This document shows, in pieces, positions 8,307 through 60,957 of a stretch of 64,000 nucleotides of DNA. Numbering within the stretch: position 1 is the first letter of the stretch; each line of letters begins with the position of its first letter. Source of the stretch: Anthoceros angustus (taxonomy: Eukaryota > Plantae > Anthocerotophyta); contig MU008155.1 of assembly GCA_010909165.1 (NCBI GenBank), forward strand, positions 744,001 through 808,000. Direction: 5' to 3'. The translations under genes were made by a program, and so were the position numbers. The notes beneath the pieces are model-generated. The model was not told the origin of the DNA, made no database searches, and saw only the letters and a program-made list of their open reading frames with translations.

Positions 8307-10180
8307 TCATTTGACAGCCACCGTGTGCTCCTCCCTCACGCCACAGCTTGCCTCATTTCCTCGATCACCACTTGGGGGTAGGCCCCGCTCCCGTTCGGAA
8401 GAACCAGTGGCAGTGGCGGTCAAGATGTCGACCAATAGTTTACGCCCCTCTGTCCCAACAACCACATACACATTTAGAGTGAGCAGCTCACCATGCGAAG
8501 CCGAGGACATGAGCATCCTCATCCAGCGTAACTGTCGCTCTTGACTACGGAGGTTCTTACCCTCTCCTCCGTGGACAATCACAGGCAGGCGCCTTGGGAA
8601 TCCGGAGGATCGTATCCCACTGCGGCGCTCTTGTCGGTGACTTCCCCACCTCGGTTCCTCCTTCGGCGGTGGCGGTTTAGCCACCGTGGTGGTAGTTTCC
8701 CCAGTGGTGGCTTGCTCTGCGGTTCTTTGTGGCTCTGCCCTTCTTGGTTTGGCCACCTCTCTCTTGACTCGGCCTAGCTTCATCTCTCTCGCTTATATCT
8801 CTCTTGACTTCTTGAATTTCTCGGGCGCCATTGTTTCCATTTGTTCACAGGCTCATGAGACCTCATCTTGAAACTCCTCGATTGTGGCATCGCTTGACTG
8901 ATTCACTAAGGCCTCTGTTGGGTGGACATGGCCTTTGGCTCATGCCTTGCATAGGCGCCTCGCATTCCGTCTGCGCTCCTGCCACCTTGTTCTCGCCTTC
9001 GGGCTCTCCAACTTCTCCTTGAGCAACTTTTCTGTTGGCACACTCGGCCGGTGAGAGCCATGGCGGCTGAAGATCGCTGCGAGCCATGGCCAGAAGTCAA
9101 GAGACTGCAGATTCCAATTAGGGCTGTCCGTGCCCATTCCTTCCACAACAATTCTCGCCTTGGTGTCACTGCCTGATGGGGACGGGTCGGTGAAATGTCG
9201 CCAAAAATGTTCGGAGCTCGCGGACTTGGCTATAGTTAACCCCTCTTCTTCTAGGGGTTGGTTTGCCACAATCTCCTCATCGCTCCAATCTCTCCTAGCG
9301 GCGACTCCTCCCCTGCACAGGAGGGCACAACTTGTCGTTCCCTTTTATTTTCTCCTCCTTCACTCGCGTTCCTGCTGCCGATTTCGACTGGTGACCCTAG
9401 GTGTGGTACATGGGTTCCTCTTCTGCAGTGTCCTTCCCTTCTTGTGACCCCGTTCGGCCGTCGCGCCCTCAGCTTCTTGCCCTTGAAACCTCCCCACCTT
9501 GTCCAGATCTTCTAGGGCGCATTCCCAAGCTGGAATCCTTCCGGAATCTTCCACTCCTCCTCCTCTACCTTGAGTTCACACGGTTTCCGGCTATGAAGGC
9601 GGAACCGACTTCAACTCAGTTAGACAGGAATCTGCGAACACATGAATTAGAAGGTGAAATCAAGGAGGTCGAGGGAAGGGAGAGCAAGTCGCCCTCTCCT
9701 CAGGCTCTTTCAAGATCATCCGCCCCAATCGATTTGGTACCTTTAACCACCTCATGAAGAAAGACCGAGTAGTGCGCCATATGATCAACTTCCGATTACT
9801 GCGACACAAAATCCATGGCTAATCCCACGGTGCTTGAGAACCACGAGTTGGCGAGTCACCCATCCATTATTCACTCTCACTTCCCGGGCTTCATAGCGCG
9901 GCTCTCGGGGTCTTCTTTCTGGGGTCAATTACCAAGCTTCCATCCTCGATGCTTCTCGCCCGCCTGCTGCTCGAAGAGTCCCAAATCCCGTTTTGCGGCC
10001 TCTTCCTCGCGTCTCCCTCTTGCAACTTGGTTCTCAATTGCGGGCGCACTCTTGCACCAATCTTTGGTACACGTAACATTTCATCTCCATAAATTCCAGA
10101 CCCGGCTCACGCAGTGCCGCTCTCACCTTCCAGTGGTCCATGTTGGGCCCTTTGCATGATAACGGCCGCCTCGGCGCCAT
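8307..10180 (-). pseudogene. LTR-borne accessory ORF of element A, 5' LTR copy (~1.9 kb, frameshifted)
   Basis: MAPRRPLSCKGPNMDHWKVRAALREPGLEFME start (ORF 10034-10249), FLHEVVKG at ~9735-9760, then coiled-coil and Pro-rich segments (ORFs 8940-9269 and 8307-8783). Confidence 0.72.
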
Positions 10181-10744
10181 CTCTCTTTCTCCTTGTTTCT
10201 TGGAAAAGAACCCAACACTCCACCTGTGGAGTGGGAAAAGGAACACCACCCTCGCGTCTCCTGCATCGTTCTGTTGGCGCTCTTGCCTCGTCTCTTTTCC
10301 TCCTTAGCTACTCCCGGGCCTCAGTTCTCTTTTCCTTGGCCGCGTGTGGTGGGAGGTTCCGGGACCCCGGAACCCTCGACCTGTGGCAGCCACACTTATC
10401 CTGTCGGTTCGTGCAGTGGGTTTCGTTCCACGAAGGGTGGGGAGCCCTTCCCTTTCGATGGAGGTGCGCCCTCCACGGACCTCTCGACTCACGGCTCCGT
10501 CGGCGCCCGTGACTAGCGCCCCCTCCTGCAGTGACCCACCCTCGGTAAGTCACACTACCCTACGCGCGATGACTCGTCGGGCGGACCTCGTCGCGAGAGG
10601 CACCAATCTGCGGCGACCTTGGGACCCCAAATCACCGTCTGGTGGGCAATCCTCCACCAGCGTAGTTCCTACACTCCCTAAGACCCTTCTCGTGACAAAT
10701 TTGGGGCCGCCCCTCAAGCTCTTATCCACCCTTGAAATTTCACC

Positions 10745-10960
10745 TTCCCTCTCTTTTCTAGGTTTCTTCCTCCTCTCTTCTCTTTTTGTCTTTTCTCTTT
10801 TCTCTCTTGCTCCTTCCTTCTCCTCTCTTGCTCCCTATCCTCTCTAGCTCCTCTCTCTCTCGCTCTCCTCTCTCGCTCTCTCTCTCTCTTTTTCTTTTCT
10901 CTCTCTCCTCTCTTCTCCTCTCTTCTCTAATCTACCTCTTCCACTCTTCCTAGCTAACTT
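10745..10960. repeat. CT-rich low-complexity tract in D LTR (second copy ~39640-39875)
   Basis: Pyrimidine-only (CT)n-like stretch in both D LTRs. Confidence 0.8.
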
Positions 10961-11300
10961 CTCATTACAGGCGCCCTCACAGCCTCCCGGCCAGCGCCTC
11001 GAGATCATAGGCATTGCCCTCACGGACCTAGGCCGGACATTTGGCTACTGGCGGCGTCCGCGTCTTTGGATTTTGCTAGGGGTCTTCCCACGATGCAGCC
11101 GTCACTGCAACCACAATGCGCTCCTCACGCTCGACACTACCGGTGCTACCTCCGGAAAGAAAGGTTTGGGCCCGCCCTCACAGTCACGCACCTCAAGACC
11201 CTACGGACACCATGCACCCTCACACGGTGGCATGCGCTTGTGTAGCAAGACAAGCACACCGAGGAGGCAAGGCATGACATTTTATTATGGGGCTCCTCCC

Positions 11301-11308
11301 CTCTTATA
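11301..11308 (-). promoter_or_regulatory. Candidate TATA box TATAAGAG in D LTR (second copy ~40228-40235)
   Basis: Octamer and position conserved across families. Confidence 0.55.
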
Positions 11309-11461
11309 GGAGCTCCCCAAACCCTAGCATTAATTAATTAAGTGGGGTAGGTGGGGTTGCTTACGGTTTTAAGTAGGTGGCCTCTTAAAGGTTCTTAACC
11401 TACCTCCTAACAATCCCACTAACCCCTAGGGGTCTTAATGACCCATTCACTCCCCTACCAA

Positions 11462-13740
11462 CTATCGCCTACTTCTTCTTGGGTGTTGGCCCAACCACCA
11501 TCTTCCTCCTCTTGGCTTGGGGGTCCCGTCCAGGATCTCTTCACTCGTCGTCATGACGGGGAACCTCCACATCTCGGCGATGTTGTGAGGCTGGGCGCCC
11601 CCTCTTGCAGGCGCTCTTGTAGAGCACGGCCTCTCTATAATCTGTCTTGCCCGCGCAATTACCTCAGGCGGTTGGGTGTTGGTGCAACTCTGTCCTGGCG
11701 GACACCCCACCAACTCTACCGGCTGTGAAATCTCTTCCTCTTCCATTGGCTCCTCCACATTGAGCCTTGCATCCATTCACTCTCCAAGTCCCGAATCTCA
11801 GGCGGGGGTGCAATTCTTCAAAATCTCACATCGTCATCGTGGGGACCCAACAACTTCCTTGTCAACAAGGCAGCATCTCCTTGGCAAACTTGTTGACCCT
11901 AGCATGTAAGTGGACTGCATCTCCACGGCCCTTCAACAAATCTCATCAAATTCCTCGGGCCACTCTCCACGAGGCTATCTTACCATAGCGCATCCCTCTC
12001 AAGCGTCACCTCACTCAAAAGGCGTAGTGACATTTCGGCATCTCTCTTCCATGCCTCCGGTATCCCTTGCGCCATGCATAATCGGCTGGGCGTTGCTTCT
12101 GACGACCGACATCACGATGCATCATTTTCCTCCGGTGAGCTACCTCTTCCTTCCACCGTTGGGCCTCCGTTGCTTGCAGAGCTCCTCACTCCTTGCTCCA
12201 TGTGCTGTCCTTCCTCCGGCTCCTTGAGCTTGGCCTCGATTCTTCATTCTTGGCTTGGCGCCTCGGTCCCAGGGCAGTCTTGGCGTCCCTATTCTCTTTC
12301 TTCTCGGCTGAAGGGAGTCTTCTTGCCACTCCTTCCCATCGGGCGGTCTCCTCAATCTTACGGTTGAGGTAGCCACTTCCTTCATTCGCTCCCTACTTTC
12401 TTGTCTCGGCCTGTTCTTCAATCTTGCTTTGAGCCCCAACCTTCTCTCAGTCAACTAGGCCCTTTACTAGCGCCATCTCCTTGATAGCCTTGCTATCCTT
12501 CTCCCCACGGTAGGGCAATCGCTTGGTCATCACGGCGGCTCTCACCTCAACTCCTCTACTTCTGTAACTTGCTTCACTAATGGGTATCAATTAGGCGGCG
12601 GATGGTCGGTGAGATCCTTCAAAGCCTTTGTCTTCTCATTCCCCTCACAGGGGTCGACTCATGCCTTTCTCTTGGTGGCTCTCACTCCCCATATCGATGT
12701 TGGGTGGAACTCCTGACTCGGTCATCTCACAGGGTGGGGTTACCACCACTGCTCCATGGGGGTTGCCTCCTGTACACATGGTGGCACGCCACCTCTTCCT
12801 CTTGTGCTTGTCTCCCCACAGGGCGGGCACTCTCCTTCCTTGGCGTCGGGGCCAGGGGTGGTCTCATCATCCAAGATCACCACGGTGAAGCACTCCTTGC
12901 TCCACCTTGGGTTCCTCCTCTGCCTTCTTCACCTTCTTAGGAGGGACCCTGTCTCCCTCGGAGGGACCACTTCAAATGGTGGTAAGACTCCTCCGGCTCT
13001 TCTTGTCGATAACCCATGTGCCCCCACAGCACGGTAAGTACTCAAATGGTGTGCCTCGCCCCTCATTATCCACAATGTTTGGCCTCTGACTTGTCTCGGT
13101 GATGCTCATAGGCCCGACATGGTTGTCCCCGGTCGGTGAGCTCCTTGCTTGACTTCCACATGAAATGAAAGAATGCCTTTCTTTGAAGTAGGTGGTTTGT
13201 GGTCATTAAAACTATCCTTGTAAAAGCTTCCACTTGAGGTCAGCAATCTTATCATCCTCCGACCATTCAGCGTCTTGGCGTCTATCCCTCGATGAGCATC
13301 TTTGAGAGCTTCCTCGGGAAGGTCGACCACTGCTCTCTTTCCATCTTCATTCCTCTCGTGGAGCCACACCATCACTCGGTTTACGGCCTCCCATACACCT
13401 TACGAATGTCTTTGGTCCATCCCTTGGATCTGTCGCGTTCCTCTCAGTCCTCTGTTTCTCCCTCCGTCGATTCGTTTGCTGTGAAGACTCAACCAATTCC
13501 ACATTAGAATAGGCCCAATGCCTATCGTAAACCCAGGTACATTTTTCGTGACCTTGTCGAAAATCCCATAAGTCTCTGGAGGAGACTTGCAGCTACAAAA
13601 ATCCTGGCCCCTCCTTCTCGGATCCGTCCTTCGGGCTTCTCCTTCGCTTTTCTTCTTCTTCTCCTTGTGAGCTCGCTCCCTCCTTCTTTCTTTGGGCGCC
13701 GCACTCCTCCCGGAATTGCGCGTCTTCATCTCCACCACGC
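11462..13740 (-). pseudogene. LTR-borne accessory ORF of element D, 3' LTR copy (frameshifted; start uncertain)
   Basis: Chain of minus-strand fragments (13400-13738, 13106-13375, 12140-12454, 11462-11776) with a basic N-terminus, a DAKTLNG segment and a coiled coil. Confidence 0.62.
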
Positions 13741-13884
13741 CGACGGTCTCTTCTCCAAAATCCTTCCTGCTACGGTGGTCTTCTCCTCAAATTCTTCTAA
13801 GTGTTCTCCAGTGCATCCAGGCCTCCGTCGCTCGTCCTTGAGTCCTCGACCAACTCAAATGAGCTAAACACTCCCCTCTACTTA

Positions 13885-13894
13885 CATATATAGG
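13885..13894 (-). promoter_or_regulatory. Candidate TATA box CTATATATG upstream of the D accessory ORF (second copy 61099-61108)
   Basis: Same motif precedes the LTR ORF in A (1332-1341, 62138-62147) and B (14323-14332, ~25613-25622). Confidence 0.5.
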
Positions 13895-14740
13895 GTGAGG
13901 AGGATTTTCCACACCCAAAGGCCAGGACGAAATTTCCCTGTCCAAGGCCAAGGACCTTTTCCCCTTCAAGCGTTAGGAATTCCTCAACCACCGAGGCCAA
14001 GGAAGAATTTTCCAGCTGATGCCAATTGCAAAGCCAAGGAAGAAAAATCAGCGAGACATGCAAAAGAAATTGACCAAGCCCGTCATGACCCTAACCAGCC
14101 ATAAGCGATCTAGTCTGAAACCCCACATTAAAATGTGCCACAAGTGAATTTTTGTTTTTGGGCATGAGTGGTGTGAAAATAAGTCGGGGTTGGTAGTTAG
14201 GGATATTCATAGTAAAATGTCCTTGGCCTATGGAGTTCTTTTTGTTTTATTGCCTAGGTTAGAAAATAAATGGTCCGAATTTGGTGTTCCTTGGCCCATG
14301 GACTCGGAATGTTCCTAAAAAGTCTATATATGTGAGATAGGGGGTTTGGAATAATTAGAGTCTATAAGTTGGGGTCGAAGCCGGTGGCCGAATGAGTGTG
14401 GGGTTGTGGATTGGGATGTGGAAGCGGTCGAGAGGTCGAGCAGGAGTAGGGGAACACAGGAAACTTAACCCTAGGAAATGACAATCCCGTTCAAACAAAG
14501 CGCCGGGTGGAGCGGGGAGCGGGCGGGCCGGCGGGCGAGCGCGGCAAGTCGAGGAGGCACCGTGATCGGAGGCGCGAGGCGCAGCAGCGAAGGAAGGAGC
14601 TCGAACCCCGTCGACATCGCGAGGCGCGAGGAGGAGGAGGAAGGCGCGACAGCGCGCTCTTGGAGGTAGGAACCACAGAGACCCTCGTGAAATTCGCAGG
14701 TGGCGTTGGTTGTGGCGCGCGAGACCAGAAGAGTGAGAGG

Positions 14741-17700
14741 ATGGCGCCCAAGGTCACCACCGGTGCTTGCCCAATGGCCGAACATGGATCATTGGAAAGT
14801 TCGAGGAGGCTGGTGAAGGAGGCTGGGTTTCATGGAAGAGCGGTGGAATTACATGAACACAGGACAGTGCGGTGTGCGCGTCACCAAGGACAGACCGGGG
14901 GATTTAGAGCGAAGCCGATTGGGACCAGGTGGTTAGAAGGGTGTATGGGCGGAAGGAGGAGGCGGGCGGGTTGGTGATGGAGCCGTCCAGAAAAGAAAGC
15001 AGCGCAGCCCCGTTAAAGCGGGCGACCAACCCAAGGTGGTTGACGAGGATTTGCAGGATTGATGGTCGCCAGTGGCTCCTATGTTTCCTGCAGCACAAGA
15101 AGCGGATTATTTGTCCGACCACTTGCCTGTTCCTTCATGAAGTGGTCAAGGGGCGATCGATTGAGCGAATTCTCTTGACAAGTTGTGTGAAGAGAGGTTG
15201 AACTTGATTTCCTCGCCTCGGCCTCTCTAATCTCACCATTTCGTCCATCTTTATGTTTACGCTAACTGCGCGGAGGTGGAGATTGTAGCCTCCTCCACAT
15301 GTGGAAGCCGGTTAGGGAGGTGAAATGGAAGGCGGAGGAGCCCAAGGAGGAAAAATCGGATAGCGGGAGTCGGTGGCGGCAGGCGAGGAGGAGAAGGAAA
15401 TTCCCACCAGAAAAGGAGGAAGACCGGGGTGAAAGGCGGGCATCACGAAAAGGTGAAGGCGGGGCGTCACCGTCGGCGCCAGCTTCTGAAAATGAAATAA
15501 GCAGCTTGGAGGTGGCGAAGAGGAGGCGCGATCCGAGGACAATTTTTGTGACACGGATGCGGATGATGAATCAACTCCGGAGGGTTTAGGGGTGACCTCG
15601 AGGCGGACCCTCCTCGGCATGGAAGAGATTTTCAAGGGACTCCAGCAACGAGGTGGATGCAACCGAATTGGTGAGGGTGCGCACCTGGGAGGAAAGTTCT
15701 CGACGGAGGGATGGCGTCGGGCGGGCCGCCACAACAAGTGGACTTGCGGGGTGACCACGCCGATGATCCGGGCCCAAGCATTTGTTGGATCAAGCGGCTT
15801 TAGCTCTCACGCTCGGTGCGGCGACGGAGGAAGTGGTGAAGGCCGGGTTTGACAAGAGGAGGCCAAGCGCAAGCGGAGGAAGACAAGCGGAACTAGAGGA
15901 AATAAGGGCCAAGATTCAAGAAGATTTGTGCAGGCCTGTGAGAAGTTGCAAGCCATGACGAGCCAGGAAGCACTCATGGCTCAAATTAAGGATGCCCAGG
16001 CGAACCAGAGATGCGGGGAGTTGTTGCGAGCCAGAGGCGGAAGCGGCCTCGGTGGAAAAGGCCCATAAGCTAGCGGAGCGATATAAGCGAGCGGATGAGG
16101 CACGTGGCGGGCCGAAAGACAAAGGGAAGGGCGGGGTAGCGGGACCACGGTAGCGGAAGGCTACCGGCGGAAGGAAGCGACAACCGAGGTAGCCGAAACC
16201 TCACCTACCGCGGTTCGACGACGGCGGTGGAGTCCACTACCGAGTCGAAACCGCCACGACATTGGCGCAACCAACCCAGCAGGCGCCTTCTGAAAATGAA
16301 AGCCAAAGCAGCGGTTGGAGGTGAGAAGGCGCGATCCGAGGACAATTTTTGACTGGATGCGGATGATGAATCAACTCCGAGGGTTTAGGGGCGACCTCGA
16401 GGCGGACCCTCCTCGGCATGGAAGAGATTTTCAAGGGGACTCCACGCAACAGAGGTGGATGCAACCGAATTGGTGAGGGTGCGCACCTGGGAGGAAAGTT
16501 CTCGACGGAGGGATGGCGTCGGGCGGGCCGCCACAACAAGTGGACTTGCGGGGTGACCACGCCGATGATCCGGGCCCAAGCATTTGTTGGATCAAGCGGC
16601 TTTAGCTCTCACGCTCGGTGCGGCGACGGAGGAAGTGGTGAAGGCCGGGGTTTGACAAGAGGAGGCCAAGCGCAAGCGGAGGAAGACAAGCGGAACTAGA
16701 GGAAATAAGGGCCAAGATTCAAGAAGATTTGTGCAGGCCTGTGAGAAGTTGCAAGCCATGACGAGCCAGGAAGCACTCATGGCTCAAATTAAGGATGCCC
16801 AGGCGAACCAGAGATGCGGGGAGTTGTTGCGAGCCAGAGGCGGAAGCGGCCTCGGTGGAAAAGGCCCATAAGCTAGCGGAGCGATATAAGCGAGCGGATG
16901 AGGCACGTGGCGGGCCGAAAGACAAAGGGAAGGGCGGGGTAGCGGGACCACGGTAGCGGAAGGCTACCGGCGGAAGGAAGCGACAACCGAGGTAGCCGAA
17001 ACCTCACCTACCGCGGTTCGACGACGGCGGTGGAGTCCACTACCGAGTCGAAACCGCCACGACATTGGCGCAACCAACCCAGCAGGCGCCTTCTGAAAAT
17101 GAAAGCCAAAGCAGCGGTTGGAGGTGAGAAGGCGCGATCCGAGGACAATTTTTGACTGGATGCGGATGATGAATCAACTCCGAGGGTTTAGGGGCGACCT
17201 CGAGGCGGACCCTCCTCGGCATGGGAAGAGATTTTCAAGGGGACTCCACGCAACAGAGGTGGATGCAACCGAATTGGTGAGGGTGCGCACCTGGGAGGAA
17301 AGTTCTCGACAGAGGGATGGCGTGTCGCGGGCCGCCACAACAAGTGGACTTGCAGGAGCGACCACGCCGATGATCCGGGCCCAAGCATTTGTTGGATCAA
17401 GCGGCTTTAGCTCTCACCGCTCGGTGTGCAGGCGGCGGGAAGTGGTGAAGGCCAGTTTGAAGAGGAGGCCAAGCGCAAGCAAGCGGAGGAAGACAAGCGG
17501 AACCTAGAGGAAATAAGGGCCAAGATTCAAGAAGATTTGTGGCCTGTGAGAAGTTGCAAGCCATGACGAGCTGAGGAAGCACTCATGGCTCAAATTAAGG
17601 ATGCCACGAGGCGAACCAGAGATGCAGGGGAGTTGTTGCGAGCCCAGGCGAGGCGGCCTCGTGGAAAAGGCCCATAAGCTAGCGGAGCGATATAAGCGAG

Positions 17701-18430
17701 CGGATGAGGCACGTGGCGGGCCGAAAAGACAAAGGGAAGGAAGCGGGGTAGCAGGACCACGATCGAGTAGGAAGGCCTACCGAGCGGAAGGAAGCGAGGT
17801 AGCCGAAACCTCACCTACCGCGGTTCGAACGACACGTGGAGTCCACTACCATGAGTCGAAACCGCCGACATTGGCGCAACCAACCCAGGCGGGCGGCGGG
17901 CGGCTGCGTGGCGCCTCGCGAGGACATAGGCCGAGCAACTGTGTAGCCTACGGGAGGAGGGTAAGCACCTCTCGCAGCAGGGTCCTATTATATTACGGCA
18001 CATGGATGAGGAAACTTATGTGCTGGTCTATATGTGAATGGAGAACGCGTGCTTAACCTCACCATGTGCGTGTGGAAATAGGAGGGATCAGGCCTACCAC
18101 GCAAGTGAGGACCCGGTGCATACTTCTACCACGCCGGGTGTGGGGGTTGGCTCCCTATGCGGAGGCGACTTTGGAGGAGTTGAGCGAGGAGGAGGTCCAG
18201 CTTGGGTGGACGAGGCAGAATAATCCTCGGCAATAGGCGGCCGGAAGATGCGGAAGCCCAGTGGTACACCTCAAATTCGGACGTCCAGCGTGATGAGGTG
18301 GAAGTAGTGTGGGAGAACCTCACCAGTGGCGTGGCGGGAGAGCTCGTGGCGGCAGCAATGGAGGACGAGGGCGACGGCCAAGTCGAGGTAGGCGCAGATA
18401 GCGTGAGGCGAGGTGGTAGCAACCTAAAGA
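14741..18430 (+). pseudogene. LTR-borne accessory ORF of element B, 5' LTR copy (frameshifted, internally triplicated)
   Basis: MAPKVTT..AQWPNMDHWKVR, FMEERWNYMNTG, QWLLCFLQHKKR, LFLHEVVKG, coiled coil EEEAKRKxxEEDKR, and C-terminal YAEATLEELSEEEVQLGW. Confidence 0.75.
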
Positions 18431-18530
18431 TAATTTGGTTAGGATCGCTGGACCTAGGATCGCCCGAATTGTGGGCGCGTCTCTTGATAGCCATCTTAGG
18501 ACCTAAAATCCGGCGGTGCCCCGGCCGATG

Positions 18531-18538
18531 TATAAGAG
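18531..18538 (+). promoter_or_regulatory. Candidate TATA box TATAAGAG in B LTR
   Basis: Conserved octamer ~0.9 kb upstream of the LTR end. Confidence 0.55.
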
Positions 18539-19462
18539 GGGCGAATTAGGTCCCTCACGCGAGATAATTCTGGTTGAGATCCCCACGCCTGTGGCTGGTT
18601 GGAGACGTCCGATTGAGAGGCGGTGCGCGAGGCGCTCCTAGGGGTGGTCGAGAGCTTGCTCCGGGGGGAGGAGGGTGAGCAATCTTGGCCGACAAAGGAG
18701 GAGGAAACCAAGGGATTGGCGCGGGCGGGTGAGCTTGCTCGTGCCCGTGGACGCCTGGGGTTCTTCTTTCCTTCACACTTGTCCCCTAGTTGTGTTCAAG
18801 AGAGTGTTGAGTGGATGGTTGGAAGCTGCGGGCGAGTTGAGAGAGAGAGAGGAGAAGATTGGGTGAAGGAGTGACTAAACCTCACGCGCGAGGTGTGAGA
18901 GAGGGTTGAGAAGGGAACTAATTGAGAGGCTAGCGGTGGATGTGTGAATCCAAAAGAAACCAAACCGGTCCGGTGGAAGCGTGCGCAAGGCAGTTCCTTG
19001 TAAAAGTGTGAGTGTGGCGCCTTTGTGTGTGTGTGTGGAGCGGTGAGGATTTGTGGAATTTAGGTCCCTAGGAATCGGTGTGTGTGTGCATGAAGTGTGG
19101 AGTGCAGAAGCCGGATCCGTGCAGTGGGCGCCGTGGCGGATCCGCCGTCGCGGAAATAAGTCGCTAGGGTTTGGTGTGGGACCCACCTCGGTGGAAGCAA
19201 CCTAGGTGAGAGCACCGCGGCGTGGAATGAGATTTGTCGTGGAATAAGGTTGGTAGCTAGAGTCGGGGGGTAGTAGTGGTTGAGTAGATAGGTAAGAGGA
19301 GTAATAGCAAGTAAGTCTTGACTTAGGTGAAGGTCGAGTGATAGAAGTTAGCGTCTCTTGGCACAAACCATTCCCTTGGGAGCGAATCCTAAGCCTACAA
19401 CGACATTGAGGGTGAATGTGGACCTCACGGTGTCCCTGGACACGAATCCACACTCCACATTT

Positions 19463-19480
19463 TGGCGCCGCTGCCGGGGA
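19463..19480 (+). other. Primer binding site of element B (tRNA-Asp type)
   Basis: TGGCGCCGCTGCCGGGGA after ...CCACA-TTT. Confidence 0.9.
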
Positions 19481-19549
19481 ATGGAATCGCTGTCAAGGAC
19501 GTAGGAAGGACTAACCCTAGCTTACGTAGAGTCTAGCATTACTAGATTG

Positions 19550-25349: not shown

Positions 25350-25366
25350 GTTGGCGGGACGCCAAC

Positions 25367-25381
25367 AAATGAGAAGGGGTA
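25367..25381 (+). other. Polypurine tract of element B
   Basis: AAATGAGAAGGGGTA followed by the LTR start TGTAACG. Confidence 0.85.
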
Positions 25382-32067: not shown

Positions 32068-32092
32068 GTTTGCGTCCACCAAACAACGGGAC

Positions 32093-39190: not shown

Positions 39191-39227
39191 TCTTCACACT
39201 CTCCATTCGAACAAAGAAAAACACACA

Positions 39228-39242
39228 CTCCCGACAGCGCCA
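39228..39242 (-). other. Primer binding site of element D (tRNA-Asp type, apparently with a small deletion)
   Basis: TGGCGCTGTCGGGAG following the LTR end ...CCCACCACA-TTTT. Confidence 0.75.
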
Positions 39243-39246
39243 AAAA

Positions 39247-45806: not shown

Positions 45807-45933
45807 CTAAGGCCCATGTGTTATAGACTAATCTTCCCTCATAGTGGATAGAATTAAGAGATAGGCCTCTAGGATTGGTAGGCTAAGGGATTGGTATTTT
45901 GGCAGCCAAGCTGCTTTTTGGGGTGATCTTGGG

Positions 45934-45941
45934 TATAAGAG
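45934..45941 (+). promoter_or_regulatory. Candidate TATA box TATAAGAG in C LTR
   Basis: Conserved octamer ~130 bp after the accessory ORF end. Confidence 0.55.
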
Positions 45942-47344: not shown

Positions 47345-47360
47345 TGGCGCCGTTGCGGGA
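47345..47360 (+). other. Primer binding site of element C (tRNA-Asp type)
   Basis: TGGCGCCGTTGCGGGA after ...CCACA-TTT. Confidence 0.9.
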
Positions 47361-47433
47361 GTGTCATTGTTGTCAAGACCTTAGAGTAGACTAACCTTGT
47401 CTAGTAGTGTATTGGGAGTCTTGAGTGTGATAC

Positions 47434-50400: not shown

Positions 50401-53400
50401 GGAAGGACAACGAGAACAGGTGAAAGGGTGAGCCGAGATCATTCGATTCACCTCGAGGACCTATTTAGGAGTGGGGATGAGGGAAGAGGACCTCGTGAAC
50501 CGGAGGAAGGGTTTGGTGAGAGTTCAAGACCCGTGGAGCGAGAATGGGTACAAGCGGACGAGATTAAGGATGTGGAGGTATTGCCCGAAGGTGCTGAAGT
50601 TTGCACGAATGGAACCAGCGTTGGAAGAAGGAATGAAAAGCCGAGTTCATCGACGTGTTTGCCTTTGAGGTGAGATATGAAGGGATTCCCAAGAAGTGGG
50701 GAGCATAGGATCGATTTGGAGCCGTGGAGCGACTCCGTCAATTCCCAATACAAGCTGAACCCAAAGTACTCACTAAAGGTGAAGGAGCAGCTCGAATTGT
50801 ACTTGAAGGCAGACGTCATCTATCCAATTGTGAACACGGAGTGGGTGGCTCCAATTGTTGTGGTCCCTAAGAAGCAGCCTGGAAAGATTCGAGTATGTCA
50901 AGACTGGAGGAAGCTCAACAAAGCAACCAAGAAGGACCATTTCCCTCCGCCATTCATCGACAACATCCTCGGACTTGGTGGTGGAAGATGTGTGTACTGT
51001 TCTTGACGGGTACTGGGTACAATCACCGCACTTGAGGGAGAGTGACTGCCTCTAACAGCCTTCACGGATTGGGGACCTTGAGAGTGCGTTCGGATTGACG
51101 AGCGCCGTTCCTTCATGCGGAGCATGGTTGAGATCTTCAAGGAGTATCTCCACAAGTTCATGGAGGTATTCCTAGATGATTTTTGTGTGTTTGGGAGTGT
51201 GGAGGAGCACCGGATCACTTGCGGTGGCGAGGTGTCGTGAAACTCAACTTTGCCTACATCCCGAGAAATGCTACTTTGGCATGCGGAGGGATTTTGTTGC
51301 ACAATTTCAGACGAGGCATCAAGTTGATCCGATAAGGTGAAGATGATTGTTGCCCTGAAGCTCCAACAACTCTCAAGGAACTCCGGGGTTCCTTGGCATG
51401 GTGGGCTACTACCGCTTTGTGCCTAACTTTGCTAGGAGGGCTGCTCCTTTGACCAGCTTGTTGAGGAAGGACCAAGAGTGGGGACGGTGAGAGGAGGCAT
51501 TTCAAGATTTGAGGACCACGTTGGTATCAACCCTCAAGGGACCGGGAAGAAGGAGGGACCGATCGAGGACCATTTAACCTTCGCCATCATGGATCAGCTT
51601 TGCTATCACGTTTGGTCAACTATTGAAGGACAACCAATGCAACAAGTTCGGAGGGCCTTGCAAGAAGCGCAACCCAAGAGGAAGAGGCGATTGCCCAAGC
51701 CAGACCAAGGGTCGACCCCTACAACAACCTAGTGTCCATGATAGACCAAGGGCCGGAGTCGCAAGTGGAGATCGCGTGTCATCAAGCGGGTTCCCTTGGA
51801 TACCGGATCCGGTGAACATCATGACGGAAGGGATAGCAAGGAAGCTTGGGTTGGACATTGAGCATACCACCAGGTCGAGATTGGTGACATGTCAAAAATG
51901 CAGCACTGTGGGAGAATCAAGGAGTAACCACCATCATAGGGACCATTCCCTATCTCATGGACTATGTGGTTATCCGGCAAGGCGCCTGTGGTACGACATC
52001 CTATTGGGAGGACCCGTATGGCTCAAGATGCAAGATGACTTGGGGAGGAAGGAAGTGGCTTTTAAGCCAATGGATTGGGACCCCAAGACAAGGAGGGCGA
52101 ATTTGTTTGAGTTGGAGCAGGATACCTCGTGGGGAGACTCCTACACGAACGGAAGGATACACATCTGGAGAAACATCGACTGGAGGAAGAAGGAGAAATT
52201 GGACAAATTTCCTTTTGCACATATCGCATGGTCGGATGAGGAGGAAGAGTATAGGAGGGATATCCCTTACTCCCTCAATTTGGTGGACGCTTTGGTTTCA
52301 TGGAGGACCCCAGCGGAGGAGGTGGACCCGTTGCTAAGGTTGCTAAGGAAGCATCGATTCCGAGGCGGTTGCTAAGGAAGCAAGGAGACGGTCGACAACG
52401 GTGAGGGTGAGCCGTGGATCATTCGATTCACCTCGAGGACCTATTTAGGAGTGGGGATGAGGGAAGAGGACCCTCGTGAACCGGAGGAAGGGTTTGGTGA
52501 GAGTTCAGCACCGTGGAGCGAGAATGGGTACAAGCGGACGAGATTAAGGATGTGGAGGTATTGCCCGAAGGTGCTGAAGTTTGCACAGCTGGAACCAGCG
52601 TTGGAAGAAGGAATGAAAACGCTCCTTGAGTTCATCGACGTGTTTGCCTCGAGGTGAGATATGAAGGGATTCCCAAGAAGTGGGGAGCATAGGATCGATT
52701 TGGAGCCGTGAGCGACTCCGTCAATTCCCAATACAAGCTGAACCCAAAGTACTCACAAGGTGAAGGAGCAGCTTGAATTGTACTTGAAGGGCGTCATCTA
52801 TCCAATCGTGAACACGGAGTGGGTGGCTCCAATTGTTGTGGTTCCTAAGAAGCACCGGAAAGATTCGAGTATGCCAAGACGGAGGAAGCTCAACAAAGCA
52901 ACCAAGAAGGACCATTCCCTCGCCATTCATCGACAACATCCTGGACTTGGTGGTCGGAAGATGTGTGTACTGTTCTTGTACTGGGTACAATCACCGCACT
53001 TGAGGGAGAGTGACTGCCTCTAACAGCCTTCACGGATTGGGGACCTTCGCACAAGAGGAGTGCGTTGATTGACGGGGGTTCCTTCATGCGGAGCATGGTT
53101 GAGATCTTCAAGGAGTATCTCCACAAGTTCATGGAGGTATTCCTAGATGATTTTTGTGTGTTTGGGAGTGTGGAGGAGCACCGGATCACTTGCGGTGGCG
53201 AGGTGTCGTGAAACTCAACTTTGCCTACATCCCGAAAAATGCTACTTTGGCATGCGGGAGGGGATTTTGTTGGGGCACAGAATTTCAGCACGAGGCATCG
53301 AAGTTGATCCAGACAAGGTGAAGATGATTGTTGCCCTGAAGCCTCCAACAACTCTCAAGGAACTCCGGGGGTTCCTTGGCATGGTGGGCTACTACCGACG

Positions 53401-55188
53401 TTTTGTGCCTAACTTTGCTAGGAGGGCTGCTCCTTTGACCAGCTTGTTGAGGAAGGACCAAGAGTGGGACTGGACAGCTGAGAGGGAGGCAGCATTTCAA
53501 GATTTGAGGACCACGTTGGTACAACCCTCAAGGGACCGGATGGAGCAAGAAGTTCCATGTGTACGTGATGTTTCCGCCGCCATTGGTACGCCTTGAGCCG
53601 GTGGATGACAAGAAGAGGGACTACCCAATCTACTACGGGACGGCAACTCACCGATGCGGAGCGCAAGTACACAACAACGAAAGGGAAGCCCTTGGGATGG
53701 TGTATTCAAGAAGGAAGTTTCGCCATTATCTCCTCTCCTATGAGTTTGTGTTCCATGTTGACCATTTTGCTCTCAAGCATCTTGTCAACAAGGCGGATCT
53801 TCGTCGCATAGCTCGTTGGATCTTCTAAGAGTTCACATTCACGGTGGAGACACGTGAGGGAAGAAGCATGTGAATGCCGACTACTTGTCTCGCTTGAAGA
53901 CGGAGAAGGTGGAGCGTGATCAAGAAGATCATTTTCCGGATGAAGCTTTCTTCGGAGGAGGATGAGAGTGCTAGGCCCAATGCCAAGTTGATCGAAACGG
54001 AGGTACAGACCAAATGAGAAGGGAGGAGAGAAGTTTTGCAGCCACCTATGAGGAGGTCTTTCGCTTTTAGCAAGATACCGGGACTGTCTACACAACAGAG
54101 GTTGTTCTATACTTCTCGCACTGTTAAGCGAGACAAGCCGCATGGTAGGGCCGATGGAGTTGAGAGGTTGTGGGTCAAGGATGGTCAAAAGGACCGGGTT
54201 CTCGCCTTGCATGAGGAGGAGGCCGGAGGTCACTACGCCAACGTGACTGTAAGAAGATCTTGGAGGCGGGGTATTGGTGGCCAACCTTGCACATAGATGC
54301 TAGGGAGTTCATCAAGCGTTGTGATGCATGTCAAAGGGTTGAAAGCCAACCAGACCACAAGGCCATTGGTCCCTATCCTAGCCTTGGCGCCTTTGAGAAG
54401 TGGGGATTGACTTCGTTGGGCGATTCAACCCCAAGACCAAGGGAGCCAATCAATATATTCGGTAGCAACGGACTCATGCCGCATGGTGGAAGCTCAAGCC
54501 TTGCCGTGGACACAAATGTGGTGGCAGTTCTTGTTTGAGTACATCATTACAAGGTACGGTGCCCGTTGGAAGTTAGCTGGGTACCCATTTCATCAACGAG
54601 GTGATCTCACACATGGTGAAGTACTTCAACATCAGCCACAGGAAGACCACCCCTACAACCCCAAGGCGAATGGACTCACGGAGAAAGCTAATGGATTGCT
54701 TTGCAGATCCTCAACAAGTTGACCATCACCTACACCTACGATTGGGACCGGAAGCTTCACTGCGTTGTGCGCTAGGACAATGGAGAAGGTGACCACACAC
54801 AGACTCCCTACTACCTCACCTATGGGCACTCACCACCATGCCCATTGAGTTTGAAGTGCCAACGTTGAGAGTCCAAGAGCATAAGAGGATGACGGTGGAG
54901 GAGAGCCGCTTGGAGAGGCTCATAGGCTTTGTTCAAAGACATGGAGAATAGGAACAAGCCTTGGCGCCTGAACGTCCAAGAGAAGAGGAAGGAATGGCAT
55001 GACCGGGCGCAAAAACAAGAGTACGTTGTTCGGGACTTGGCGTTTGTGTATGCGTACATGCACTTCCACGAAGCGCATCTTAGATGGATGGGTCCCTGGG
55101 TCAAGTCGACAATGGATCCATACAAGCGGCAACTTGATGGATTCGCCAACCGGGGTCAATGGTTGGCGTGAAGAAGTATTACCAATAA
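47434..55188 (+). pseudogene. Element C gag-pol, frameshifted; protease-RT block duplicated (~49555-51541 and ~51542-53533)
   Basis: KAIKAALNYEE plus K/S/D-rich gag, VPLDTGS protease, RT EWVAPIVVVPKK and FMEVFLDDFCVFG, LRGFLGMVGYYRRF, RNase H EREALGMVY, integrase GYWWPTL..CDACQR and YNPKANG, ending KKYYQ*. Confidence 0.92.
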
Positions 55189-55206
55189 GTTGGCGGGGGC
55201 GCCAAC

Positions 55207-55223
55207 AAATGAGAAGGGGAGTA
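55207..55223 (+). other. Polypurine tract of element C
   Basis: AAATGAGAAGGGGAGTA followed by TGTGGTGACC. Confidence 0.88.
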
Positions 55224-58200
55224 TGTGGTGACCACATGGGTACTCGGACCCCTGAAAGGAGTGTTTTTTGTTTTGTGTTTAAGTTAGAATCGTGTGGAGT
55301 TGGAATGTGAAGTAGGTTAGGAAATAAAGAAAAGTCTACTAGAGCCTAGTAGGAGGAAGAGAGTCTAGTCCCGATCCCGGATGTAACCTCGGAGGGTTGG
55401 CTGCTCGACCGTTGCTACAGTTGCTAGGGCCGTTGCTAGGCTTGCTATGACCACAAACTCGAGCTGTTGCTATGGTAGCAACCAAGTTGGAGTTTCTTTC
55501 AATGACTTGGAAAATCCAATCGATGGAATCAAGGAATACCCAAACGGAAGTAAGGGGTCCTATTGGCAATTAAAGTGCGGGAAGAGTATTTGCATCGAAT
55601 CCAGCGGATTGAAGACGGCGCGCCTCAAGCTCGGGCGTAATTGTGGGCGGAGGCGGGCCGGCGGAGAAGGACACAAGGGCGGTGTCGAGTCGCTGAAGGC
55701 ATCAGCCGCAGCCAGATCGGGATTGGTGGCGGTCAGGAGGATCGGAGGAGGCAGGCGGAGCGAGCGCGCGGTGCAAAGTTGGAGAAACACGTGGGTTGAT
55801 AGGGGCCTGAAGTGGGCTGTAGCTCACGCAAAATTGGTGGAAGCGGGGTGTGGTGGCAGCGCACTGGAAGCTGAGAATGTCACGGAAAACATAGGGATTC
55901 TTATAACCGAGGCGGGAGCATGGTCACGCCACAAGGGTCGGGCATGCCGGAGTAGCCGGGTGGAGGAGTAACACGAGGGCACGGAATAATCGGCCAGCGC
56001 GGTCACCAACTGCGGATAGGGGAGGACGAAGTGCATCAACCGTGCGTGATTGCGATTCACCGGAGTAAAATCAGGCGGGACACTCCACCGTGGCTGAGCC
56101 GGCGTGTGTTCCCACAGGGGATCCTCCGGTCTTGTGGGGCTAATTTCGGGAGGAGCATGGCGCTAAGAAGAATACTCCGCCATTGAGGCCATTACGACGC
56201 CCAATGGCCCAATATGGGGCCGGAGAGTGAAGGCGGGTCTTTGGTGGCTAAGCATCACCGTCCTTCATGGACAAAAAGTGGTGCTACAATAGCCCCTCGT
56301 TGGTTTTGGAGTGTCAGAGCGCATGAGGGAGAAGGCCATGGGGAAGGCAACGTGAGGACCAACCCCGCACTGGAATATTCACTCCGGGTCATGAGAGACC
56401 AAGAGGAATGTGGATAATCATTGACCCTTTCAGAAACCATCTCCTCAAAAGCCGCAGGAGGCACAAGCGGTCATTGCTCCCACATTGTCTAGAGTGGAGA
56501 ATGGCTGGGTCACCAACAAGCTAGACCACAGGCCGGATTAGCCAGTGGATCCTGCTCTCACTCACTAAGAAGCCGGAGCACATTCTTGACCATTTCCTTG
56601 TCTTTCTCTATGAGGTGGTGAGAGGGTCCAAGATAGATTGGGCCAGATGTTCTATGACACAGCGTGGAGAGGGACCACTTGACCCTACCATCACCTAGCC
56701 CCACTCTATCTCCCTTCTTAATCCACGTTTTGACCATGCCAGTTCTTTGGAGGGAATGGAGATGGTCTCACCTTTCATTTACGAGGCCGGTGTTTGAAAG
56801 AAGGAAGCCCAAAGAGGAGTCGGAGGAAGAGGCCATCTCCGGTGCGGGAGTGAAGATGAGAAGTCCAAGTGTCCATGAAAGGAATGTGACCGTGGCTAAG
56901 GTAGCACCATGTTGCTAACAAGGCAACGCATTGCTAAGGCCCCAACAGTACCAAGAGGGAGGGGAGCAACGGGACTCCAACAACACCTAGAGCCACAAGA
57001 GCGCACGGGAGCTCACACCGAGCAAGACAAGGGCAAGGCCAGGCAGCACCAATATCCCGAGCCTGGGGGGAAACCACAGTCAAGGAGGAATCACCAACCC
57101 TTGGGCACGCCGAGCGGTCCGAGAAAGTGACCACTGCTCAACGGTGGCTTTCAAGTATACCGGAAGTTGTGGCGGCATGACGGATAGGAAGGAGGGAGCC
57201 CATTCCCGAAGGTCCGGGACCTAACATCACCCCTGAGTTGGTTTCAGCTATGGCACGCACTAGGCGAGATGGAAGATCGAGCTCGTCCTCTCCTTGTTAG
57301 GTTCTGGTAGCAAGGGAAGCAACAGGGAGCTGGAGGAGCTCCAAGATGAAGAAGGAGAAGGAGGTTTTGGAGGGACGCCTAGCGCTTGGAAGTGGAAATA
57401 GGGAAGGTCCGAGGAGTTGCAGAGTCTAAGGACCAGAAGCCCTCATGGCTCGGCTCTCCGACACAGCACCATAGGAGAGCTGCAGAATGTTATTTCGGAT
57501 GCACAAGTGCGAACCTCGGATGCCTCACGAGCGCCACAGAAGGAGAGGGACGAGGCTAGGAAAGGTGGAAGGAGGCCAAGAGGGCCGGGATTGCAAGGAG
57601 GGCCACCGTGGAAGAGGCGAGGCTCCTATGGAAGAATCTGCCGAGTTAGCACCGAGGAGGTTGCTAAGCAAGCAACCGCCGGGTTGCTAAGCAAGCAACC
57701 GCCGTTGCTAGGAAGCAACAACGTAAAGCTCCAAGACCAAAGCCACAAGGAAGAAAGGGGCAGAAGACCGGAGGAGGACAACAGGCCGGGGGGCGGGTAA
57801 GCACCTCTAAGAAGTCTAACTTCCCAATGGTGCATTAGATTGAGGATGCTTATCAAGATAATCATGTGCCCGGATTCTCCTTGGCTGAGAGAAGATTGTC
57901 TCCGAAAGTTTATGTTGTTGTGGGCACAGGGGGACATGGAGGTACTTGATCCATGCCTTGACGGCACCGGATCCTACCTATGGGTTGGACTCTTACGGAG
58001 GAGACTTTCACCGACCCATCCAGATTCAAGAGCTCACCGAGGAGGAGTACGGACTGTCTGCGGCGAGCACAAGAGAGGAGTCCAGCTCGAGGAGGTGGAG
58101 ATTTGTGGGAGAGATTGCCCAACCAGCCAAGAGGAGAGCAAGAGGAGAACATGGGGCTAGGCGGCCTAGGAGGCCTGTGGAGGGATAATAGGGGTAAGTG

Positions 58201-60957
58201 GCCTGAAATAGATGAAGGCCCATGTGTTATAGACTAATCTTCCCTCATAGTGGATAGAATTAAGAGATAGGCCTCTAGGCTTGGTAGGCTAAGGATTGGT
58301 ATTTTTGGCAAGCTACTTTGTGGGTGATCTTGGGTATAAGAGGCAGCCCTCTTGATGAAATGTAAGCAATGTTGGCCTAAAGTCTCGGTGTTTGGGGTGA
58401 GCACGGGGTTTGGGGGTACGGATCCAGTCTTTGTGAGTCTAGACACTTCTCTCAGAGGAGCCGGGAGCAACGGGACTCCAACACCTAGAGCCACAAGAGC
58501 GCACGGGAGCTCACCGATGGCAAGACAAGGGCAAGGCTGTGGCAGCACCAATATCCTGAGAGCCTGGGGCTGGGAAACCACAGTCAACAGGAGGAATCAC
58601 CAACCCTTGGGCACGGCCGATCCGAGAAAGTGACTACCTCAACGGTGGCCTCAAGTATACCGGAAGTTGTGACAGGCCATGCAGATAGGAAGGAGGGAGC
58701 CCATTCCCAAGAAGGTTTTGGGACCTAACATCACCCTACTGGAGTTGGTTTCAGCTATGGCACGCACTGTGGAGATGGAAGATCGATAGCTCGTCCTCCT
58801 TGTTAGGTTTACAGCGCAGAGGGAAGCAACAGGGAGCAATGGAGGAGCTCCAAGATGAAGAAGGAGAAGGAGGTTTTGGAGGGACGCCAAGCTGGAAGTG
58901 GAAATAGGGAAGGTCCGAGGAGTTGCAAGTCTAAGGACCGTGAAGCCCTCATGGCTCGCCTCCGACACAGCACCATAGGAGAGCTGCAATGTTATTTCGG
59001 ATGCACAAGTGCAGCGAAACTCGGATGCCTCACGAGCGCCACAGAAGGAGAGGGACGAGGCTAGGAAAGGTGGAAGGAGGCCAAGAGGGCTGTGGATTGC
59101 AAGGAGGGCCACCGTGGAAGATGCGAGCTCCTATGGAAGAATCTGCCGAGTTAGCATGAGGAGGTTGCAAGCAACCGCCGGGTTGCTAGGAAGCAACTGC
59201 ACTGCTAAGGGAAGCAACAATAAGCTCCAAGACCAAAGCCACAAGGAAGAAGGGGCAACAAGACCGTGAGGAGGACAAACAGCTGGGGAGCGGGTAAGCA
59301 CCGCCTAAGAAGTCTAACTTCCCAATGGTGCATTAGATTGAGGGATGCTTATCAAGATAATCATGTGCCCGGATTCTCCTTGGCGGAGAGAAGATTGTCT
59401 CCGAAAGTTTATGTTGTTGTGGGCACAGGGGGACATGGAGGTACTTGATCCATGCCTTGACGGCACCGGATCCTACCTATGGGTTGGACTCTTACGGAGG
59501 AGACTTTCACCGACCCATCCAGATTCAAGAGCTCACCGAGGAGGAGTACGGACTGTCTGCGGCGAGCACAAGAGAGGGAGTCCAGCTCGAGGAGGTGGAG
59601 ATTTGTGGGAGAGATTGCCCAACCAGCCAAGAGGAGAGCAAGAGGAGAACATGGGGCTAGGCGGCCTAGGAGGCCTGTGGAGGGATAATAGGGGTAAGTG
59701 GCCTGAAATAGATGAAGGCCCATGTGTTATAGACTAATCTTCCCCTCATAGTGGATAGAATTAAGAGATAGGCCTCTAGGCTTGGTAGGCTAAGGATTGG
59801 TATTTTTGGCAAGCTACTTTGTGGGTGATCTTGGGTATAAGAGGCAGCCCTCTTGATGAAATGTAAGCAATGTTGGCCTAAAGTCTCGGTGTTTGGGGTG
59901 AGCACGGGGTTTGGGGGTACGGATCCAGTCTTTGTGAGTCTAGACACTTCTCTCAGAGGAGCCGAGAAGACTACCAAGTTGCCCAGATCTGTGTGACCAG
60001 ATCCGCAAGAGTGGTGGAAAGCAAGGGGAGGAGAACTGGTGATCTCCTTGGAGGAGTTCCCAAGGATAAGAGGAAGGGGTTGTGAAGGAGGCTGTCCATT
60101 CTCTTACTCATTCTCTTGACTTGTCTAGTACTCACCTTGTGTTTGAGTTTTCAGGTGTCGAGGTCATGTGGGAAAAGGAGACAAGGCGGGAGCCTGTGGG
60201 TGGAAGAGAAGGTCAAGTGAGACGGAGTCCGTGGGTTTGTATGCTTGGAAAATGTGAGCGAAAAGTGAACTGTGAGAGGAGTGGAAAATGAACATGGGAG
60301 TTCTTGATTGGGAGGGAAGTAAGAGGGATTGGAGAAGTCTGAGTGATGTTTCTGAGAAAGTGGGATTGAATGAGGCCGTGAGGTGTGAGAACAAGGAGCG
60401 GAAGGGAGTTGCAGAGGAACTTGGGGAGTATGGAGAGAGATGCAAGAGGTACCTCGTGAGCACAGGGAGGACTGTATGAAGCTTGGGAGGAAAGCTGAAA
60501 GGTTGGAGGGAAGAAAGAGAGATCCGGGAAGTGTTACAGTAAGGAGGTGGGTTGTGTGATCGGCAACCACATTGGTGGATCGACTTTGTGGAAGGATAAG
60601 AGAGAGGTGTCCAATCTTATCCACTTGGACCCCAAGTGGGCCCACCCTTCTATTAATAGCCAGCTGAACCCGAGATGGGTCCCACTGCTAAAATAGAGGG
60701 TGGTTGCTAAGATAGCAAGATCGTCCGTTGCTAAGGTAGCAACAGGTCGTGGCTAAGATAGCCGCAGTGCAGTGTTGTTAGGATAGTAGCACAGTCAGAG
60801 CTGCTAGATGTTTTGTATGTCCGTGTTTGGTTGGATTGGCTATGTTTTGGTTGTCTTGACACGAAATCACTCCCTTGGGTACGAATCTCAAGTCTACAAC
60901 GATAAGAGGGTAAATGTGGCCTCTTTGTGACCACTTAGTTTAGAAAATCACTCCACA
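55224..60957 (+). repeat. Element C 3' LTR
   Basis: Same termini as the 5' LTR; ~1.5 kb internal duplication (~56960-58455 and ~58456-59955). Confidence 0.92.
56157..58237 (+). pseudogene. LTR-borne accessory ORF of element C, 3' LTR copy (C-terminal part repeated to ~59737)
   Basis: Same motifs as 43759-45806; ORFs 57840-58160 and 59345-59737. Confidence 0.72.

Follow-up and report, generated by a model that had tools for sequence, protein, structure and literature searches.

Can the long terminal repeats (LTRs) of a plant retrotransposon carry a protein-coding gene of their own? This question is raised by a 64,000-nt stretch of the Anthoceros angustus genome (assembly GCA_010909165.1, contig MU008155.1, positions 744,001 to 808,000), hereafter the window, in which self-comparison and junction reading revealed four nested Ty3/gypsy elements, A, B, C, and D. 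An earlier examination of the letters (the sequence-only reading) had claimed one conserved gene of about 2 kb in each of the eight LTR copies. We found that an accessory-type coding region does lie inside true LTRs, giving two copies per insertion, and we regard it as very probable that this is a real gene. A sense-strand coding signal was present in families A, B, and C, although the full-length gene has to be followed through read noise, and the homology of the corresponding region in family D is marginal.

The long repeats flanking each element are true LTRs, as had been claimed. Direct terminal repeats with TG..CA ends, a primer-binding site (PBS), and a purine tract (PPT) were found in all four elements, with the outer 5' TG of B garbled and the outer 3' end of A lying off the window. 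Each of the four 5' LTRs terminates in C(A)CA, followed by three or four T residues and then by a PBS of the form TGGCG(C/T).., which starts at 7137 (minus strand) in A, 19463 (plus) in B, 47345 (plus) in C, and 39242 (minus) in D. C is bounded by an exact 5-bp target-site duplication (TSD), AGCTT; the TSD of B matches at four of five positions, none is legible for D, and that of A falls outside the window. A PPT precedes the 3' LTR in 4/4 elements, and the gap from the pol stop codon to the 3' LTR, earlier put at about 35 to 40 nt, measures 32 to 41 nt (A, 35; B, 32; C, 35; D, 41). With the pol stop almost abutting the PPT and 3' LTR, there is indeed no internal env-like region, and only these few nucleotides lie where an accessory open reading frame (ORF) between pol and the PPT would be placed. 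Once tandem duplications are subtracted, the LTRs are about 3.7 to 4.5 kb long.

We also saw a hairpin between the pol stop and the PPT. Its stem is 7 bp in A, B, and C, with the sequence GTTGGCG..CGCCAAC (1600 to 1583, minus; 25350 to 25367, plus; and 55189 to 55205, plus, respectively), and D has a hairpin of different sequence at the same place (about 32088 to 32060, minus). Folding z-scores of these hairpins are only -1.4 to -2.5; they may help to define the plus-strand primer or to end translation. Searches with the pol-PPT-LTR junction motifs gave 0 matches in a viral collection, one metagenomic locus (L001) that was set aside since its surroundings are unlike such a junction, and one locus (L002) in a bacterial metagenome-assembled genome in GTDB that was taken as chance.

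In the 5' LTRs, the gene occupies 8307 to 10180 on the minus strand of A (about 1.9 kb, with read-type indels and a conserved domain at about 10180 to 9590), 14741 to 18420 on the plus strand of B (about 2.1 kb net of duplications, 3' end approximate), and 43759 to 45805 on the plus strand of C (about 2.05 kb). The 3' copies start at 970 in A, where only about 970 nt of the ORF precede the window edge, at 26083 in B (running to about 29540), and at 56157 in C, where the 3' part is duplicated to about 59712. The start codons proposed at 10180 (minus), 14741 (plus), and 43759 (plus) are correct, and all six A/B/C copies begin ATGGCG, 635 to 996 nt into the LTR. The ORF start in these three copies, ATGGCGCC, includes TGGCGCC, a heptamer with which the PBS motif of these elements also begins; this overlap is possibly due to chance. 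The motifs PNM[DG]H..V, W.Y, NGW, W[IL]L, and FL[HY]EVV[KR]G were recovered in A, B, and C as described, except that NGW is illegible in the B copies.

The cross-family similarity was measured by frameshift-aware codon alignment, with 12 shuffles per pair. Over the first ~700 nt, all 12 cross-family pairs among A, B, and C scored 66 to 151, compared to shuffle maxima of 43 to 52. The sense score exceeded the antisense score in 12/12 pairs, with means of 108 and 68. For controls, integrase gave a mean of 327 in sense and 159 in antisense (6 pairs). In contrast, DNA that had been mutated neutrally, with the score matched, gave 98 and 114. The domain shared by A, B, and C is N-terminal and spans about 190 residues. 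The C terminus had been called family specific, and this holds only in part: 5/6 B-C and 2/3 A-C pairs beat 40/40 shuffles, if narrowly and in part through frames of low complexity, whereas 0/12 pairs involving D beat all shuffles. The statement that the flanking LTR DNA cannot be aligned between families was true for most of it, but a block of about 70 nt near the LTR 3' end is 79 to 87% identical among A, B, and C (7240 to 7170, minus; 19351 to 19420, 47238 to 47310, and 60854 to 60926, plus). This block is likely a cis element of U5, the LTR segment downstream of the transcript start; an Rfam search with it returned 0 matches.

Where the gene lies within the LTR is indicated on one side by the PPT, which is established, and on the other by a conserved promoter-like motif, TATAAGAG. 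All nine occurrences of TATAAGAG in the window are on the element strand, about 120 to 350 nt past the ORF end or in a duplicate of that stretch, at 7955 to 7962 (minus) in A; 18531, 29655, and 29988 in B, the last two in the 3' LTR within a duplicated stretch; 45934, 58335, and 59836 in C; and 40235 and 11308 in D. The motif is found in all four families 0.8 to 1.4 kb ahead of the LTR end, and its nine occurrences compare to a mean of 1.4 and a maximum of 7 in 200 shuffles; since the copies of one family depend on each other, these amount to four observations. A second motif, CTATATATG, occurs eight times (shuffled mean, 0.2): six copies precede the ORF in element orientation in A, B, and D (including 62146 in A and 61107 in D), and the other two are antisense in D. 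Judged from sequence, TATAAGAG is a candidate main TATA box and CTATATATG a candidate promoter of the gene. Because the ORF precedes the TATA-like TATAAGAG in each of the four families, it is quite probable that the gene resides in U3, the segment upstream of the main promoter. Past the TATA-like motif, D and C also contain tracts that are GA-rich when read along the element strand and CT-rich on its complement, at 39663 to 39842, 10765 to 10928, and 46040 to 46900; these tracts could serve an antisense promoter.

Family D had been said to hold a divergent version of the same gene. Its coding region spans about 2.3 kb in the 5' LTR (40390 to 42741, minus strand, start approximate) and about 13730 to 11460 in the 3' LTR. 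The motif blocks are colinear with those of A, B, and C, but homology is marginal. An alternative is that D captured a different gene independently and that only A, B, and C share one, which would leave our interpretation of those three families intact. Only 4/12 D pairs scored above the shuffle maximum, antisense equaled or exceeded sense in 9/12, the C-terminal similarity described above is nil for D, and D falls outside the A/B/C clade. When a profile of A, B, and C was run over 2,015 fragments, the fragments D3 and D5 were the top two outside the training set (E values of 0.0017 and 0.2, compared to 0.31 for the best reversed control), and shuffles reached the profile score in 0/300 cases for D5 and 2/300 for D3. 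Among 354 nontraining windows D5 again ranked first, with 32.4 bits, but an integrase window reached 32.3, a margin of 0.1 bit over the best background. An hhalign comparison of D with A/B/C aligned the four motif blocks over 89 colinear columns with an E value of 0.02, at a probability of 2%. The position, the strand, and the downstream TATAAGAG are as in A, B, and C. On this evidence, we consider homology of the D region to the A/B/C gene likely and a separately captured D gene a doubtful reading.

The rest of each element identifies its relatives. The order gag-protease-reverse transcriptase-RNase H-integrase is colinear with Riccia polyproteins in 4/4 elements by tblastn, and D has matches to RVT_1 and RT_RNaseH. 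We found no additional RNase H (aRH) and no chromodomain, since the elements are colinear with aRH-less Riccia polyproteins and pol ends directly after the integrase C terminus. The PBS motif described for Athila is TGGCGCCGTTGCC (tRNA-Asp/Asn), following a short AT-rich spacer (excerpts of 10.64898/2026.03.20.713144); C differs from it by one base and A, B, and D by one to three, in noisy sequence. Both the PBS and the absence of aRH fit Athila. Because aRH-less Tat Z1/Z2 elements are also present in liverworts (excerpts of PMC10508981 and PMC13468544), we call the elements Athila-like rather than Athila. An accessory ORF is not universal in Athila, with PF03078 found in 16% (excerpts of PMC6317226).

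A fragment of the B integrase matched 102 proteins among 326 candidates, and the named eukaryotic matches are all from liverworts (Riccia sorocarpa, R. fluitans, Marchantia polymorpha, and Calypogeia fissa). We built an integrase tree of 48 rows, consisting of the four window copies, with X at frame breaks, and 44 of 45 matches chosen from the 102. In it, A, B, and C group together (support, 99/98) with D outside, on long window branches that derive from read errors, and the four window integrases belong, together with proteins of Riccia and Marchantia, to a clade of 19 rows (98/94). This topology is the same pattern as that of the LTR protein. Taken by themselves, the integrase matches had suggested a liverwort as the likely host. 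The integrases of Riccia and Marchantia are the closest named ones, with 48 to 54% identity to the noisy B fragment and 50 to 60% in the tree set; the polyproteins of R. sorocarpa and M. polymorpha (for example, R1sor_012684 and R1sor_025070) share the domain order of A to D and likewise lack both aRH and a chromodomain. Of 13 polyproteins tested, none matched the window LTRs.

We next consider what the LTR gene might encode. The best Kyte-Doolittle 19-mer across three sense frames scored 1.04 to 1.32 in the eight copies, and the absence of a transmembrane segment that the sequence-only reading had noted thus held in 8/8 copies (no 19-mer above 1.32), which speaks against an env-like membrane protein, with the proviso that an indel could hide such a segment. 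Judged by eye, there is an Arg/Lys-rich linker, each of the four families shows basic clusters, and the middle is charged and helical looking. The predicted product reads as a folded N-terminal domain, a basic charged linker, a helical, coiled-coil-like middle, and a small C-terminal domain. The spacing NGW..L..G..IDW..ISPFL had been likened to Athila-type accessory domains, a likeness that seems plausible.

On balance, we favor the explanation that an Athila-type accessory gene was captured into U3, with a nuclear regulator of the element as its most likely product. In this scheme, genomic RNA would start just after TATAAGAG, so that the ORF would be absent from the 5' end of the RNA and would follow pol at its 3' end. 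The gene would then sit on genomic RNA in the usual place of Athila ORF2, with only the position of the PPT differing. An ancestor of A, B, and C, and perhaps also of D, would have shifted its plus-strand priming to a purine tract just past pol, and reverse transcription would from then on copy the gene into both LTRs in every cycle. Expression could follow either of two routes. The upstream TATA-like CTATATATG (A, B, and D) could drive the gene in every LTR copy, even a solo LTR, or the gene could be read from a spliced RNA, which is the route of Athila ORF2. The protein may act in the nucleus on the chromatin or transcription of the element; this role, proposed by analogy with the accessory ORF (aORF) proteins of Grande, Retand, and sunflower Athila, is tentative, and we put it at somewhat under an even chance. 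A bolder version is that a whole clade of Athila/Tat-type elements from liverworts, predating the divergence from the relatives in Riccia and Marchantia, moved a gene for a protein family not yet described into U3, together with a promoter of its own, and that each LTR, solo ones included, is a cassette for a trans-acting anti-silencing or activating factor that survives LTR recombination; we view this version as rather unlikely.

Several results weigh against the captured-gene explanation. The function is proposed by analogy, and the upstream TATA-like CTATATATG was not found in C. Homology queries were short, noisy, single-frame fragments (core pieces of 31 to 130 amino acids), and HMMER filters drop weak matches. 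In four partly overlapping sets of such fragments, 0/18, 0/8, 0/10, and 0/9 matched any of the Pfam families PF03078 (ATHILA ORF-1), PF20167 (Transposase_32), PF10536 (PMD), and PF04195 (Transposase_28); a search of 5.8 billion proteins returned no relative of the LTR protein, and one of 1.84 billion representatives returned two matches, both unrelated repeat proteins. Other searches had similar outcomes, with 0/201 candidates when a D fragment was compared with longer proteins, 0/7,996 scored with the LTR-protein alignment A2, and no usable match in the ESM Atlas (best 0.78, unnamed). Two candidates were rejected: the best PDB profile match, the CERT START domain (E value, 0.5), as chance, and the weak scores of the A2 profile over many pol proteins in a set of 104 (best single-domain E value, 0.018) as not indicating homology. 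AlphaFold models had pLDDT (predicted local distance difference test) scores of 51 and 47 and disagreed with each other, and a Foldseek search with the low-confidence D model found 0 matches in the PDB and, among viral structures, none below an E value of 1.6.

If the gene is real, its product could instead be a structural or RNA-handling factor, such as a particle chaperone, an RNA binder, or a cytoplasmic silencing suppressor, rather than a regulator of chromatin. Roles as chaperones and at plasmodesmata have been proposed for env-like aORFs (PMC7264820), a role in RNA silencing for Tekay aORFs (excerpts of PMC11728184), and an Arg/Lys-rich linker suits RNA as well as DNA. However, the product has no transmembrane segment, a sense Athila aORF with Transposase_32 has a predicted nuclear localization signal (NLS) (excerpts of PMC11728184), Grande GENE23 is nuclear (PMC7264820), and the basic clusters recur in each of the four families. 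We consider an RNA-handling factor unlikely.

Whether the region still codes for protein has to be judged against the quality of the sequence. The window is error-prone long-read sequence: paired LTR copies differ by 7 to 14% gap columns and 2 to 8% mismatches, and integrase, which is certainly a gene, requires 11 to 15 frame breaks per kb. The density of breaks in the LTR gene equals that in integrase. Over the core of the C gene, 221 short-read contigs (run X1) aligned, 97 of them at a level of at least 99%, and relative to the C copy they showed 70 indel rows (12 displayed) and 11 substitution rows over 801 nt. Since integrase is equally broken and the errors are dominated by indels, broken LTR frames are expected and are not evidence against the gene. 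Several indels in these contigs also fall near frame switches inferred from the other families (for example, 56430, 56525, and 56746); at such an indel density, this coincidence by itself lends little support.

With these properties in mind, we asked whether the gene could be a decayed relic, swept into the LTR once and now noncoding with traces of homology. No copy of the LTR gene has an open frame, and the core of the ORF still aligns between families as DNA (72 to 76% over 85 to 135 nt). Mismatches by codon position are equivocal, at 0.49/0.39/0.62 in sense (1,412 nonindependent codon pairs) and 0.45/0.42/0.61 in antisense, and we did not accept this test as strong evidence, since a like bias is seen in antisense alignments and in simulated neutral ones. 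In contrast, break density does not distinguish the region from integrase, and the start motif, domain motifs, and ORF length (1.9 to 2.3 kb) are kept even though the integrases are only 51 to 56% identical between families and most other LTR DNA is unalignable. Stops common to both LTR copies that no indel can bypass numbered 2 in 8,655 columns of the ORF (shuffle means sum to 9.4), compared to 13 in 6,062 columns of the LTR flanks (8.6) and 3 in 3,015 columns of pol (9.0). Shared stops are therefore depleted in the ORF relative to the flanks, although none of the regions reaches clear significance by itself (best P = 0.045). We judge decay to a noncoding relic improbable. Finally, we rejected on junction anatomy the notion that assembly duplicated an ordinary internal env-like region and that the true LTRs are short, an exceedingly improbable account that draws on several 0.3- to 2-kb head-to-tail duplications at read-error divergence, also in pol, whereas the repeats flank gag-pol, TG follows the PPT directly and CA precedes the PBS directly in 4/4 elements, and C ends with an exact TSD.

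The nesting of the four elements accounts for the layout of the window. A (minus strand) is outermost, D (minus) lies in the 5' LTR of A, B (plus) in the 3' LTR of D, and C (plus) in the 5' LTR of D. The range first given for the LTR gene copies, 8307 to 59737, needs to be extended, as the 5' LTR of A and both LTRs of D are split by insertions and reach 62398. The 5' LTR of A comprises 61889 to 62398, which starts TGTGG, and, beyond the inserted D, 7141 to 10344; its internal region (PBS, gag-pol, and PPT) spans 1580 to 7140, and its 3' LTR, truncated by the window edge, spans 1 to 1579. The 5' LTR of D is in two pieces (60958 to 61888 and 39247 to 42762), as is its 3' LTR (30892 to 32051 and 10345 to 14105), and its internal region, with gag-pol, the domain matches mentioned above, and a 0.9-kb tandem duplication, spans 32052 to 39246. 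B consists of a 5' LTR at 14106 to 19459, including two extra tandem copies of about 0.8 kb, an internal region with PBS, gag-pol, and PPT at 19460 to 25382, and a 3' LTR at 25383 to 30891. C consists of a 5' LTR at 42763 to 47341, next to the AGCTT duplication, an internal region with PBS, gag-pol carrying a 2-kb tandem duplication, and PPT at 47342 to 55224, and a 3' LTR at 55225 to 60957. Head-to-tail duplications of 0.2 to 2 kb with 82 to 94% identity, also found inside pol and across the right junction of B, occur at 15483 to 17888, 26734 to 29483, 29586 to 30239, 30851 to 31303, 33083 to 34930, 49557 to 53539, and 56962 to 59967; their appearance suggests artefacts, from a long-read assembly that was not polished, and not biology.

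The three insertions that make up the nest (D in A, B in D, and C in D; 10345 to 61888) all fall within LTRs, in or near the stretch from the LTR start to the first codons. C inserted about 20 nt before the likely gene start of D, and D inserted 164 nt before the start in A. This clustering (n = 3) may reflect open chromatin at the U3 promoter. Outside A, the sequence from 62399 to 64000 is AT-richer (GC content, 0.44), has 0 ORFs of at least 100 amino acids, and is likely host intergenic DNA.

Plant LTRs are treated as noncoding and extra ORFs as internal, so genes within LTRs could be missed systematically. If our interpretation is correct, a conserved 2-kb gene in U3 would explain the ~4-kb length of these LTRs, and the formation of solo LTRs, the usual route of removal, would leave a protein gene behind. 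The relatives in Marchantia and Riccia would also open the role of an Athila-type accessory protein to study in a haploid model plant. In the literature searched, mostly at the level of titles and abstracts and outside Steinbauerova 2011, the supplements of PMC6317226 (lists of extra ORFs, or eORFs), and Repbase, we found no plant retrotransposon with a gene in its LTR. In reviews, the extra ORFs of plant elements are assigned to the internal region (PMC7264820 and excerpts of PMC6317226 and PMC11963269), and Athila and Phygy elements are reported from a liverwort in PMC12885004, the available excerpts of which do not describe LTR genes.

Among known systems, the ORF2 or env-like aORFs of Athila (PF03078 and PF20167, as in Athila4, Bagy2, and sunflower Athila 14) are likewise in sense orientation, downstream of pol, and in nonchromovirus elements with an Asp/Asn-type PBS. 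The sunflower Athila protein, with 487 amino acids and an NLS, is of a size class similar to that of the LTR gene product (excerpts of PMC11728184), and ORF2 of Arabidopsis ATHILA is expressed through a spliced subgenomic RNA that was detected on polysomes (excerpts of PMC7197481). Known aORFs belong to the internal region, where they either precede gag or separate pol from the 3' LTR (PMC7264820), whereas the window ORF lies behind the PPT and in both LTRs, and its fragments differ from those aORFs in having neither a Pfam match nor a transmembrane segment. The aORFs of Retand, Grande, and RIRE2 (Transposase_28, PF04195, with an Smc-like coiled coil) are likewise large, with a conserved domain and Smc-like parts, and the Grande protein is nuclear, from a gene with its own promoter (excerpts of PMC7264820 and PMC11963269); in contrast, they are antisense and internal, belong to aRH-bearing Tat elements, and TRP28 is reported only from flowering plants. 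Retrosat2, RIRE3, RIRE8, and Ogre likewise combine LTRs of 3 to 5 kb with an accessory ORF (excerpts of PMC3485330 and PMC6317226), but in such elements the extra ORF is described separately from the LTR (excerpts of PMC3485330). A whole ORF in U3, upstream of the main promoter and in both LTRs, is found in sag of mouse mammary tumor virus (MMTV) and partly in nef of HIV-1, and extra upstream U3 promoters can transcribe sag (excerpts of PMC12789967). MMTV Sag is a membrane superantigen of an animal retrovirus, while the window has a plant retrotransposon ORF of about 2 kb without a membrane segment; no sequence relation is claimed, and the gene, if confirmed, would be a plant parallel to sag. 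The layout described here is real and is unusual among LTR retrotransposons that bear accessory genes.

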